Translations under genes and position numbers: made by a program
Shown here: in pieces, positions 18,910 through 27,986 of the stretch
Numbering within the stretch: position 1 is the first letter of the stretch
Layout of the letters: each line of letters opens with the position of its first letter
NCBI GenBank assembly: GCA_963718615.1
Contig: OY970368.1
Location: 5,696,001 to 5,760,000, forward strand
DNA: 64,000 bases
Reading direction: 5' to 3'
From: an uncultured cyanobacterium
GTDB lineage: Bacteria; Cyanobacteriota; Cyanobacteriia; PCC-9006; JAAUQQ01
The notes under the pieces: model-generated
What the model saw: only the letters and a program-made list of their open reading frames with translations
Told to the model about the DNA's origin: nothing
The model's database searches: none

Positions 18910-19051
18910 TCCCAGGACATAATCCGCCCCAGCGCCACAAATCCAGATAAGATCCAGAGGCAATTGCCCGACGTTCAGCGCCCTTTTCCATGAAATCGAC
19001 GATCGCCCAGCTCAGGGACCGCTTCGAAACCGCCCTGGTCACCGCCTGTGG
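18910..19051 (+). repeat. Direct-repeat copy of argS upstream region plus first ~20 codons (matches 19764-19905)
   Basis: 137/142 identical by manual alignment. Confidence 0.97.
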
Positions 19052-19053
19052 GG

Positions 19054-19437
19054 TCAGCGAGCTACGGTGAATTGCCGTAACCATTCCACCAGAGCATCAC
19101 GGCCAGTTTCTCCTGCCGCGATCGCCAAAACAATCCTCTCCTGTTCATCCACAGCAGCACGAATCTCTCTCCCATTCAGAATTAGAAAGACCTCCATCGC
19201 CGCATGACCCGTTCGTTTGTTCCCGTCTACAAAGGGATGATTCATAATGATAGAGAATCCCAGAGCAGCCAACTTCTCAATGAGACTTGGGTAGAGATCT
19301 ACTCCTCCAAAAGCCATTTGGGGCTGAGCGATCGCCGACTCCAGAAGACCCAAATCACAGACCCCAGAAGCTCCACCCGATTGTTCAAGAATCCTGTGAT
19401 GGAGTTGTAGCACCTCCACCAACGTCAGGTAACGCAT
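19054..19437 (-). CDS. Doc/Fic family (death-on-curing) toxin
   Basis: [11 protein letters not shown]ic motif, GLLESA. Confidence 0.92.
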
Positions 19438-19634
19438 TAGGCTAAGCGCTGATACAGCTCAGTATTCTTGTTTAAGACGTAATTAGTCGCATCCTGAAAA
19501 TCAGCTTGTTGCGCGCTGAGCCAGCTTTCTAAACTGGAACGCAAAAGTATATCTAAAGGAATATTTTGAGACTTCGCCAAATCCTGCAAGGCTTGTAGCC
19601 TCTCTTCTGAAAGTTCGATCGTGACAGACGCCAT
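19437..19634 (-). CDS. Antitoxin of the Doc-type TA pair
   Basis: 65 aa, TAATG-coupled to the toxin; ends [10 protein letters not shown]. Confidence 0.8.
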
Positions 19635-19843
19635 CGCAGTAACCTTCTTAGTGCCTTTCTGCCCAAATTTTAGCATCAGCACTTGCTTAGCCTATGCGCT
19701 GGATTCGCAAAGTGCTTGACCCAAGCGCCCTTCAAGAAGCCAATGCCTGTAATAACCCTCTAGTCCCAGGACATAATCCGGCCCAGCGCCACAAATCCAG
19801 ATAAGATCCAGAGGCAATTGCCCGACGTTCAGCGCCCTTTTCC

Positions 19844-25288: not shown

Positions 25289-26800
25289 ATGTTTTGTCAG
25301 TCAATCAGGCACTGGAGTATTACTCGTGAGAACGAAAAACTGATGATGCCCAATGAAAGAGAGTTACTTTTGCAAGAGCAGGTAACTCTCTACAACAACA
25401 TTGCAAAGTTTGGTGATGCTGAAGGCAGATTGCTCGCAGAGTTGCAGATCTTTCCATCCCCTAGGATTCGTTGGTCGTTTGAGCAGTTAGGTGTACATGA
25501 AGCTTGGCTACCCAGGTCAGGAGACTGTTCGGCACCTCAAATTACTGGTCACTTTTTTACCATTGAGAAACCGAAGATAACACAGTATCGTTCAAACATT
25601 GTTGGACCAGCGGAAATCAGAGCAGGAGATACAGCGAGAGCCATTTATGGAGACTTTGATGCCCCCGGCCACTTTTTCAAGTTCTACTTTCCTAATTTCC
25701 GCTGTTTGCAGAAGGCCTTTGGGAAACCAATTTGGAACAAACAGATCGATCCCAGCAGGGGAAATGATCAAGAAGTAGGTATGCAAGAGCACGGACGTTA
25801 CATAGAAGCATCGCTAGACGAAAATTGGAGTATCAAGCTTTTCTCTAGCAAAGATGCTAACAAATGGCTAAATTCAGAAGAAGCCAACATTGGAACACTT
25901 CTAACGACTGAAGGCAGCTTCTATCAAACACATTTCAAGGACATTCCTAAAAATTCACCATCTCCATTACAAGCTTTATCTCTGCGGCAAGTCACTGTAG
26001 TACTGGAGGATTTGGGAAGCTTTATGGCTTTTCCCAATGGCGGATACTTGGGTCCCATATACATAGAAAGTTGGCAGTATTTAGAGGACACTGATAGCTC
26101 CATAGCGGCCGTAGCAAGCCAATATCTGAACACAACGCTAGATAATCTCTCGATTTCTTGGGTCGCAGATGGTATCAAATTACAGCCTTATTTAGAATGT
26201 TTTCCCACGTTCAAAGTAATGCTAAATCAGTCATCTCATGATGGCACTTCGTGGAAAGATACATACCGTTTTGTTTTAGCTCAATATTTTCAGGCAACTA
26301 GTCCAAAATTCCGAGGTTGGCAGGTTCGGGCAAGCAGTATCGGTTCAGCGTTAGAACGTCTATCCGACATGATTTTGGTACAAGATGAGTCTCATGATGA
26401 AAGGAAAGAAAAATGTAATCTACTGTTTGAGCGCGGAAAGGATAAACAAGCAAGACGTGAATGGAATATTGGCAAAGGAGAGGGACAAGAAGATACCAAT
26501 CCAACCAGCAAGCGTTTATGTCTCATGCTTGAGCGCATAGGCTTGACGAAAGAACATGGGTTCTCACAGGACTTAGAGGATACATCAAAATTCTTGACAG
26601 TTAGGAACGAGGCTGTACATCCGAGAGCTATAGGGATAGACGTTAAGGAACGTGACCGTCTCATCTGGAGGGCTGTTCAGTGGGTCGAGGAGGTTCTCCT
26701 GTGGAGATTAGGGTATGAAGGGCAATATTGCGATCGCCTGACTGGTGACTATTTCAATACACCTCGATACGATCTCAATACTCGAAATCCTGACTGGTAG
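25289..26800 (+). CDS. Hypothetical protein with C-terminal HEPN-like R-x4-H motif
   Basis: 503-aa ORF (start may be 25343); ALERL...VRNEAVH...LGYEGQY. Confidence 0.6.
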   Translation: MFCQSIRHWSITRENEKLMMPNERELLLQEQVTLYNNIAKFGDAEGRLLAELQIFPSPRIRWSFEQLGVHEAWLPRSGDCSAPQITGHFFTIEKPKITQYRSNIVGPAEIRAGDTARAIYGDFDAPGHFFKFYFPNFRCLQKAFGKPIWNKQIDPSRGNDQEVGMQEHGRYIEASLDENWSIKLFSSKDANKWLNSEEANIGTLLTTEGSFYQTHFKDIPKNSPSPLQALSLRQVTVVLEDLGSFMAFPNGGYLGPIYIESWQYLEDTDSSIAAVASQYLNTTLDNLSISWVADGIKLQPYLECFPTFKVMLNQSSHDGTSWKDTYRFVLAQYFQATSPKFRGWQVRASSIGSALERLSDMILVQDESHDERKEKCNLLFERGKDKQARREWNIGKGEGQEDTNPTSKRLCLMLERIGLTKEHGFSQDLEDTSKFLTVRNEAVHPRAIGIDVKERDRLIWRAVQWVEEVLLWRLGYEGQYCDRLTGDYFNTPRYDLNTRNPDW

Positions 26801-26926
26801 ATTGTTTAGCCGCAAATCTCTGATCAACATTCATCCCAGTGCTAACAACCGATCAACGATGATTCAAGACCCCGAACTGCGCGAGCAAGTTGGAAAAATA
26901 GCCCATAAACTGTTGGGAGGTGTGGA

Positions 26927-27334
26927 ATGGGAATAAATTGGGATCGACTCAAAGCACTTCATTTGCAAGGTGACAGGGCCAGTCAACTCAACAGCCTCTA
27001 TTTCAACCTTGCCCGTCTCCAAGTTCTCGCCACCGGACACACCGACGAACCCGTCGCCCTTCACCTCATCCGCGAGAGCCAGTGCTTTATCGAATGGATT
27101 GTCCCAACCCTCGATCTGGAGACAGACGATATCAGCGTTGCCACGTCACTGGTTGATCTTCAGCGCCAACTCAGCCGATGGAAACTGGAGTGGGGGAAGT
27201 GCTGGAGCGAAAAAGAGGCACGGGAGAATCTGGTGACCCAGGCTGCACAATGGTGCGATTTCCTCGGCAGCTTGCATTGCGATCGCCCCCAGAAACCCTC
27301 AATGTCCAGCCCAGAACTGTACCAACAGGTCTAG
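26927..27334 (+). CDS. Hypothetical helical protein
   Basis: 135-aa ORF with GGAGG upstream; LIRESQCFIEW, LQRQLSRW. Confidence 0.7.
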   Translation: MGINWDRLKALHLQGDRASQLNSLYFNLARLQVLATGHTDEPVALHLIRESQCFIEWIVPTLDLETDDISVATSLVDLQRQLSRWKLEWGKCWSEKEARENLVTQAAQWCDFLGSLHCDRPQKPSMSSPELYQQV

Positions 27335-27377
27335 CAAAGTCGCCCTGCTATGATCGAGGAAGTTCAGAGGACCCCCC

Positions 27378-27986
27378 ATGGCGACATCAGCGCTCACCCA
27401 TCCTCAGCAAGACTGGCCCATCGTGCTTCAGCTCCAACCCGCGTTGAGCCTTGATGACGACCAGTTTTTTGACTTTTGCCAGCTTAACCAAGATTGGCGA
27501 TTTGAGCGTACCGCTGCGGGAGAGCTGATGATTATGTCACCAACCGGCTCAGAAACAGGCGGTTATAACTTTGACTTGACCGTAGAGTTGGGAATCTGGA
27601 CCAGGCGTGACGGCAGTGGCAAAGGGTTTGATTCGAGCACAGGCTTCACATTGCCCAACGGTGCCATTCGTTCCCCTGATGCCGCTTGGATTCGGCAAGA
27701 GCGCTGGGAAGCCATTCCCCCAGAACAACGACGCAAATTTGCGCCCATTTGCCCAGACTTTGTTGTAGAACTGCGATCGGAGTCTGATGCATTAGAGCCC
27801 TTGCAGGCCAAGATGGAGGAATACTTGGATAACGGAGCCCAGCTAGGGTGGTTGCTCGATCGTCAGCACCGCCGTGTCTATGTTTATCGACCAGGGCATG
27901 AGGTGGAATGCTTAGACAACCCAGCCTCGGTGAATGGAGAGTCGGTTTTACCCGGTTTTGTGTTGAGCCTGAGCTTGGTTTGGTGA
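27378..27986 (+). CDS. Uma2 (DUF820) family endonuclease
   Basis: FERTAAGEL, FDSSTGF, SPDAAW, PDFVVELRS, GAQLGWLLD. Confidence 0.92.
   Translation: MATSALTHPQQDWPIVLQLQPALSLDDDQFFDFCQLNQDWRFERTAAGELMIMSPTGSETGGYNFDLTVELGIWTRRDGSGKGFDSSTGFTLPNGAIRSPDAAWIRQERWEAIPPEQRRKFAPICPDFVVELRSESDALEPLQAKMEEYLDNGAQLGWLLDRQHRRVYVYRPGHEVECLDNPASVNGESVLPGFVLSLSLVW

Follow-up and report, generated by a model that had tools for sequence, protein, structure and literature searches.

How do small toxin-antitoxin (TA) and defence-type genes come to lie in series beside a housekeeping gene when no integrase or transposase is seen near them? We examined this question at the argS locus of an uncultured cyanobacterium (GenBank assembly GCA_963718615.1, contig OY970368.1), in a stretch of 64,000 nucleotides (nt) that we call the window and whose own numbering is used below; the genome is complete, measures 6.1 Mb and carries 1.44 HIP1 octamers per kb. 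An intact argS is accompanied here by partial copies of its own ends, with a block of cargo genes between one copy and the next. The array is built like two alleles of one variable slot retained in tandem, and its best reading is a serially stacked, TA-carrying variant of the insertion with long target duplication (PMC2853133). How TA and anti-phage genes spread without transposases or integrases is an open question, and scars of this kind provide dated, sequence-resolved junctions on which it can be tested.

In order to define the copies, argS and its flanks were queried against the whole genome by BLASTN. Four partial copies were found, all in direct orientation and all within 3.5 kb, three of the 3′ end (80-88% identity) and one of the 5′ end (96.5%), with repeat lengths of 54-142 nt; the next-best match was no better than E=0.02. 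The first-pass annotation, made from the sequence of the window, had described three direct copies of the 3′ end terminating at the stop position and a 5′ end duplicated around a Doc pair, and both descriptions were confirmed (the latter as 142 nt at 96.5%), with the starts of copies 2 and 3 moved to 23135 and about 24949. Every 3′ copy terminates at the position of the argS stop codon, and in copy 1 the stop codon itself is altered. Judged from its alignment, copy 1 probably extends in a decayed form to about 22258, an equally good alignment being obtained in 25 of 5000 random genome segments. A further 20 nt or so of 3′ flank is common to copies 1 and 2 and the argS flank of the related genome G004. 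The four-fold sites of argS run from a C/A-rich 5′ end (G+T 0.35) to a G/T-rich 3′ end (0.85, the 99th percentile), more strongly than in relatives; this skew was considered as support and set aside, its direction being mixed over 15 termini.

Contigs from three public sequencing runs (X1, X2 and X3, from three studies), which show presence only, were then compared with positions 15000-31000; stretches of the array that no contig covers were left out of account. In X3 and X1, that is in two studies, position 21598 is joined to 22391 through 43 other letters, followed by the UPF0175 gene, so that the open reading frame (ORF) of 204 amino acids (aa) and copy 1 are skipped; the X3 contig measures 893 nt and is 92-94% alike. 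This empty site was seen for cassette 1 only. The copy 2 junction was bridged by an X3 contig with 2 differences, and the junction between the 5′ copy and Doc by contigs in X1 and X2. With empty-site contigs from two other studies, and further contigs that cross the joints, the array is a true polymorphism and no assembly error.

The slot between argS and the conserved gene downstream of it varies in the same manner among relatives, being empty in G003 and G006 and differently filled in G001, G002, G004 and G007. In G002 a Uma2 homologue, 80% identical, lies directly 3′ of argS, and in G001, whose contig ends before argS, an ApeA-like gene, the 135-aa ORF and a Uma2 stub (81.6% nucleotide identity) stand just before the conserved gene that other family members have behind argS. 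In the present genome this distal gene is found 230 kb away, the far flank of argS having been rearranged. The content of the slot is variable and in part shared with G001 and G002, as the cargo comparison proposed in the first-pass annotation shows. Cassette 1 is probably the newest addition, to judge from the empty-site joint, the slot cargo common to relatives and the G004 flank in copies 1 and 2. The empty-site joint and the shared cargo also uphold the earlier suggestion that units were added serially next to argS, leaving the gene intact and displacing the older end with no linked recombinase. That annotation had named three findings that would undo it, and none of them holds: the locus is not invariant, the copies are not dispersed and the array is not misassembled.

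A genome-wide scan for other genes with terminal copies nearby, also proposed at the outset, yielded 13 further genes. The self-scan returned 185 direct repeats that are local only; 32 of these have one copy in a long ORF, and 23 of the 32 reach to 30 nt or less from a gene terminus, where 4.4 would be expected. The automatic set of 32 includes some paralogue remnants and misses argS copy 1, and the 13 other genes (14 copies) were picked by hand for alignment. At least 14 genes of this genome, argS included, thus carry the scar of a copied gene end. At nine of the 13 other sites the cargo is of the TA, nuclease or toxin type, namely ParE (at chlH), MNT-HepT (at hsdM), PIN and PemK (a two-copy stack at a WD40-STAND gene), BrnT/BrnA, XisH, HSDR_N, DUF4058, DUF5615/PIN and Tox-PL-2; two of the nine also contain IS3-type genes. 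The remaining four enclose an RTX protein, a peptidase and a channel, a cytochrome oxidase operon, and nothing recognised. Across the scar sites the cargo ranges from 0.4 to 7 kb and lacks an integrase, while the cassettes of the argS array measure 0.7-2.9 kb. The insertion scar is a general one, and the argS array is a well-polarised case of unusual depth.

Two of the other sites deserve a separate remark. A cytochrome c oxidase operon of 6.8 kb is bracketed by a duplicated gene end of 52 nt (genome 5537420-5544367, L158); cargo is therefore not restricted to small defence genes. At purU (genome 344396-345732, L143) there is an overlap between the end copy and the stop codon of a 274-aa gene in convergent orientation, and the duplication therefore preserves two gene ends at once.

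We also looked for this scar beyond the present genome. Matches to a profile of the ArgS C-terminus were obtained in 348 of 401 genomes, with the proviso that short or decayed copies could escape it, and local copies of the argS 3′ end were found in one of the 347 other genomes, G233, which has two around HicAB and a 267-aa ORF; extra matches in G040 and G221 were on other contigs. Among metagenome argS loci, copies were present at 0 of 52 testable 3′ ends and at 1 of 50 testable 5′ ends, the latter (L094) being a 5′ copy around an MNT-HepT pair. These counts, together with 0 of 20 argS regions in relatives, led us to reject argS as a universal hot spot. Elsewhere, G002 has its own purU end copy of 329 nt around a different gene; TA pairs are enclosed by a gene-end copy in G033, and a homologue of the 204-aa ORF by a 5′ duplication in G109. 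Genes at these loci are presumably acsF, trpS, mnmG and a fasciclin gene, names that come from our own recognition and not from a tool. We also asked whether flanking direct repeats belong to the cargo itself. They were present at 0 of 26 Doc and 9 of 27 DUF3368 homologue loci against 6 of 162 control windows, and an intrinsic property of the cargo was rejected; in six of the nine DUF3368 loci that were viewed, one repeat covers the coding end of a gene, one lies just upstream of a gene start and four are intergenic.

In order to assess the origin of the copies, their substitutions were compared with the live gene ends. Copy 1 differs from live argS by seven synonymous changes and one non-synonymous change. 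The ratio of non-synonymous to synonymous differences (pN/pS) was 0.21 for the argS copies and 0.28 for the 14 others (p=0.007 and 1e-4 against duplication followed by decay, uncorrected). Over the last 51 nt, live argS differs from the argS of G003 at 3 sites, from copy 1 at 9 and from copy 3 at 12. A non-functional 3-nt change is common to copies 2 and 3, although copy 2 is in other respects nearest to live argS. The copies are mosaic, and the two dead copies at the WD40 gene share 17 differences from its live end. These patterns suggest, but do not prove, foreign alleles together with recombination among the repeats. A polarity of decay, in which the junction side is decayed and the terminus has synonymous changes, was seen at argS (p=0.015), a result owed to the uncertain extended part of copy 1.

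It would be consistent with these observations that the array arose by homology-anchored capture with duplication, a reading to which we give a probability of roughly 0.55: DNA from the same slot of a relative would be anchored in the gene end and rejoined upstream of the old end. The DNA beside each argS end would constitute a variable slot, with small cargo exchanged among related cyanobacteria. A linear piece from the slot of a relative, comprising an argS end and its cargo, would be taken up and anchored in argS by RecA-type recombination, and its far end would rejoin the recipient argS at a point 50-300 nt short of the terminus, through an illegitimate joint or by pairing with a short copy already present. 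argS would remain whole, the old end and old cargo being displaced outward as a dead copy; repeated rounds would stack cassettes with the newest adjoining argS, and recombination between repeats would pop cassettes out or make hybrid copies. The truncated copy of the 135-aa gene that stands 17 nt before copy 3 is an expected outcome of such a capture, because a fragment broken off this locus in another strain would have rejoined argS there. We infer that uptake was by transformation, that RecA was required, that the live end came from the donor and in what order the older cassettes arrived; comEC, dprA and recA are present in the genome.

Capture of this kind has precedents in PMC5361080, PMC2853133 and PMC3784515, and PMC2884548 was compared in addition. 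A parallel to the order of the cassettes is given by the arrays of type VI secretion effector-immunity, Rhs and contact-dependent inhibition modules, in which, as PMC5361080 presents them, a conserved upstream anchor is followed by the newest module, the old one is shifted back and no integrase is involved; that source attributes the displacement to homology-facilitated illegitimate recombination. Their anchor, however, is a toxin gene whose variable end is swapped, whereas at argS it is a housekeeping gene whose end is regenerated functionally unchanged. The minimal mobile elements of Neisseria (PMC3787668) likewise have variable content between conserved genes and are exchanged by homology, and such variable content between conserved flanking genes is what the argS slot shows among relatives. 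In the available text of that source, the exchange is a replacement between two flanks and no terminal duplication is described, whereas the argS alleles accumulate in tandem.

Several points weigh against homology-anchored capture. Homology-facilitated illegitimate recombination usually deletes recipient DNA instead of duplicating it. When the transition bias (kappa 3.2) is allowed for, the synonymous excess is no longer significant (p=0.065 at argS, p=0.09 with all copies pooled), and the polarity of decay gives p=0.31 at the other sites. At chlH the live gene, and not the copy, retains the flank of relatives. No argS copy was found in any of the 20 argS regions of relatives, and the joint in X1 and X3 could be a pop-out instead of an empty site. 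The closeness of cargo stop codons to the junctions is not predicted unless later trimming is assumed. Moreover, homology-facilitated illegitimate recombination is described as rare in the portion of PMC5361080 concerned.

The first-pass annotation had recognised no named system in this array. A named precedent exists, however, in restriction-modification genes, for which Furuta et al. (2010, PMC2853133) define insertion with long target duplication; they cite H. pylori for its first description and list one cyanobacterial case, from Microcystis. As set out there, the cargo is below 20 kb and has no mobile-element gene, the direct repeats are locally unique, longer than 30 bp and variable in length, they often cover a start or stop codon, and a relative has the empty site. 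At argS we likewise found locus-unique repeats above 30 bp, an insert below 20 kb and, for cassette 1, an empty site. The first defining feature in that source (criterion i) is the presence of both restriction and modification genes, whereas the argS cargo consists of TA, immunity-like, HEPN, Uma2 and other ORFs of no known family; in addition the argS repeats are more diverged (80-96%), and the events are stacked four deep and touch both ends of one essential gene. A literature search, of incomplete coverage, found no report of stacked TA cassettes at the ends of housekeeping genes in cyanobacteria. On the features tested, the argS array works like long target duplication and like the type VI secretion/Rhs displacement arrays, and not like an integron or the integrase-derived islands considered below.

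Long target duplication can also be taken to have occurred entirely in place. Cargo from anywhere would be inserted during repair of a break, both repeats would derive from the recipient, selection would keep the events that spare the gene, and the copy would then decay or be partly converted. The class in PMC2853133, with repeats often spanning a start or stop codon, fits this account as far as it is presented there, as do the near-identical repeat at chlH (99% over 157 nt), the loss of significance of the synonymous excess after transition correction, and the occurrence of cargo homologues at unrelated genes elsewhere. We nevertheless regard it as unlikely, although less so than the other alternatives, because relatives have the same slot cargo at argS itself, a truncated copy of a downstream gene stands at a junction, and neither the seven-to-one ratio of changes in copy 1 nor the 17 differences shared by the WD40 copies is in keeping with it. 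If plain target duplication should be true, the restriction-modification class would be extended to TA cargo and to stacked arrays.

A site-specific integrase would leave a fixed crossover. The inner boundaries of the argS copies lie instead at -52 (decayed to -95), -66 and -106 relative to the stop codon, and at -284 and -136 in G233; at purU they lie at -56 and -331. Two near-coincidences exist: the starts of copies 1 and 3 may both fall near -95 to -106, and those of the WD40 copies fall at -233 and -239. Inspection of 92 boundaries by eye showed no common motif. HIP1 was rejected as the junction sequence, 6 of the 92 boundaries being within 12 nt of a HIP1 octamer against a background of 4.5%, although copies 1 and 2 begin near a HIP1 octamer of argS. 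Folding of six repeat regions into hairpins or attC-like structures gave z scores from -1.9 to +2.2, none striking. The earlier proposal that the argS ends act as defined, reusable, integron-like attachment sites is therefore not supported, since the boundaries vary, at least 14 genes are affected without a common motif, and local argS 3′ copies were found in one of 347 other genomes.

These boundaries also bear on the idea that the array is a relic of integrase-driven islands at gene ends, with the integrase acting in trans or lost. Cis-mobilisable elements with accretion at 3′ ends (PMC7563491) and additive tRNA islands (PMC4119200) are, in the parts of these sources that we compared, tandem units without an integrase bounded by copies of the target 3′ end, and such accretion is reported at rpsI, rpmG, fda and rplL (PMC7563491); the possible shared starts of copies 1 and 3 and of the two WD40 copies agree with this. 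Those units, however, derive from elements with a site-specific integrase and defined att sites, whereas none was found at argS, the boundaries differ between events and lineages, and both 5′ and 3′ ends of at least 14 genes are affected. The genome has four tyrosine-recombinase loci, two large-serine matches and no resolvase, and about 1 Mb separates argS from the nearest such gene, intact or broken. Searches of 19 core ORFs (Pfam) and of 41 of 44 flanking ORFs (NCBIfam, 1e-8; three were unscanned) revealed no integrase or transposase, and none of the ORFs in the argS regions of seven relatives was recognised by eye as part of an integrase-bearing element, no family-library scan of these having been run. 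A signature of insertion sequences or miniature inverted-repeat elements was likewise absent, there being no dispersed copies and no inverted repeats around the cassettes or at 53 homologue loci. With cargo of 0.4-7 kb that lacks an integrase, we consider an island origin improbable.

The outer side of the scars raises a further alternative, namely a dedicated machinery, as yet undescribed, with the ability to recognise the ends of genes or their stop codons and to insert cassettes with gene precision. The outer repeat boundaries cluster at start and stop codons, and the stop codon of the cargo lies 1-9 nt from the dead copy at 6 of the 12 sites where a stop faces it, against 8-25% in null sets (p from 1e-4 to 0.05 depending on the null; a 60-aa ORF at DUF2301 was left out of the count as spurious). 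Our own reading is that deletion would have trimmed the DNA up to the cargo stop; such trimming, together with coding conservation, would explain the clustering. The junctions have no sequence or structure in common, and flanking direct repeats are missing from all 26 Doc and from 18 of 27 DUF3368 homologue loci. A machinery of this kind thus seems very improbable.

The array resembles integrons, and the integrase-free cassette sets known as CALIN and SALIN (clusters of, and single, attC sites lacking an integron integrase), in its compact cassettes, the proximal position of the newest and its TA-rich cargo; it differs in having no attC, attI or adjacent IntI, although all three exist elsewhere in the genome. 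An intact IntI is encoded at genome 948635-949606 (444 bits, cut-off 265), about 1.3 Mb from argS, with no cassette array seen beside it, broken intI fragments lie at genome 3859666, 4646232, 4713688 and 1907122, and 14 attC-like sites and a family of 69-nt attI-like repeats (at least eight copies) are scattered through the genome; this is a fragmented integron system. The attC-like sites and attI-like repeats served as positive controls. No attC was found in the argS array by a strict scan, by a box-geometry scan or by a profile derived from three attC sites of this genome, and the 69-nt repeat is absent from it; the box-geometry scan was also negative at 12 of the 13 other sites, with one weak fold at the thirteenth. 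With the family scans above, these results agree with the first-pass statement that no integrase, transposase or attC is visible. One relaxed attC candidate at 24913 rests on an 8-bp inverted repeat and has no profile match. This inverted repeat (24913-24982) spans the junction between the remnant of the 135-aa gene and copy 3, where a fold-back joint is possible.

IntI acting in trans might still have inserted cassettes at secondary sites to give a CALIN-like train, and the intact enzyme, its fragments, the attC-like sites, the compact TA-rich cargo and the stops abutting the junctions speak for it. The negative attC and attI searches at the array speak against it, and recombination by IntI is not known to duplicate 50-300 nt of its target; we therefore give it a chance slighter even than that of a dedicated machinery. 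Misassembly or a dispersed repeat family is scarcely credible, since the copies are 4-20% diverged and local only and independent contigs bridge the 5′ copy-Doc and copy 2 junctions, even though no single contig or read spans the whole array.

A bolder generalisation may be put forward tentatively, as one that we think stands below even odds. A cassette bracketed by a gene end and a dead copy might be a mobile unit that perpetuates itself without any enzyme of its own. Trimmed back to the stop of its cargo, it would pass from one cyanobacterial species to another, entering any allele of the housekeeping gene by ends-in homologous recombination, and would stack in an integron-like manner; the ends of essential genes would then be a general, unnamed route for the gain of TA and defence genes. 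Such a unit, if true, would explain integron-like accretion in naturally competent bacteria. Dead gene-end copies are, in addition, a simple search handle for recently gained defence cassettes.

The features of the array are listed in Table 1. Family matches supported the cargo labels of the first-pass annotation for Fic/Doc, UPF0175, DUF3368, DUF433 and Uma2, and the HEPN motif RNEAVH is present in the 484-aa ORF, which resembles ApeA-like HEPN clusters (score 0.98, a lead without alignment).

Table 1. Genes, gene remnants and argS copies of the array, in window coordinates
Position	Strand	Feature	Details	Basis
18910..19051	+	Dead copy of argS 5′ region	argS -79..+62; 142 nt, 96.5%, E 5e-61	
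19054..19437	-	Doc/Fic toxin	127 aa; stop codon 3 nt from 5′ copy	Family match
19437..19682	-	Probable antitoxin	Weak CopG/DUF6290 matches below cut-off	Role assigned from position
19844..21598	+	argS	Intact, 584 aa, single copy	BLASTN, family match
21643..22257	+	Cassette 1: 204-aa ORF	No known family; stop 1 nt from extended copy 1	
22258..22352	+	Copy 1 of argS 3′ end	Firm part 22299-22352, 54 nt, 83%, E 8e-8; probable decayed part from ~22258	
22393..22647	+	Cassette 2: UPF0175 antitoxin-like gene		Family match
22634..23134	+	Cassette 2: DUF3368 gene	PADLOC candidate PDC-S70; stop 1 nt from copy 2	
23135..23201	+	Copy 2 of argS 3′ end	67 nt, 88%, E 2e-16	
23269..23577	+	Cassette 3: DUF433 gene		Family match
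23574..23618	+	Stub of broken partner gene after DUF433	14 codons	
24076..24582	+	Cassette 3: AT-rich ORF	168 aa, no family	
24805..24932	+	Decayed 5′ piece of 135-aa gene	76% to 26937-27063; ends 17 nt before copy 3	
24949..25059	+	Copy 3 of argS 3′ end	111 nt, 80%, E 3e-20	
25346..26800	+	Cassette 4: ApeA-like HEPN protein	484 aa	
26814..26930	+	C-terminal remnant	Gene found 5′ of the 135-aa ORF in relative G004	
26927..27334	+	135-aa ORF	No known family; also 3′ of ApeA-like gene in G001	
27378..27986	+	Uma2 gene		Family match

The 204-aa ORF of cassette 1 is possibly an orphan immunity protein. Homologues were found in 7 of 400 other genomes, and in four of the seven loci (L164, L165, L168 and L170) a similar ORF of 127-144 aa precedes the homologue, a partner that is missing here; judged from this gene order, the two may form an undescribed toxin-immunity pair. 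A related-locus search of genome contigs with the 204-aa ORF returned nothing, and all its matches in the ESM Atlas were below 0.9. The 14-codon stub that follows the DUF433 gene presumably represents a DUF5615-like start; tblastn with one DUF5615 protein gave no match to it. Homologues of the ApeA-like gene occur at L265 and L266 (G251 and G267) in TA clusters beside the 3′ end of chlH, the same gene end that carries the ParE cassette in the present genome.

Rfam gave no match in window 17000-29000, and promoter and terminator scans gave 3 and 4 sites, fewer than in shuffled sequences. Upstream of the array, between leuB and the 5′ copy (16283-18910), further accessory pieces are found, namely a Uma2 gene, a NACHT-like fragment, a RelN-like antitoxin and a 142-aa ORF, and a contig of X3 skips 18213-18640. 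At the other end, just 3′ of the Uma2 gene, an element of about 120 nt (28007-28133) has three dispersed copies elsewhere in the genome.

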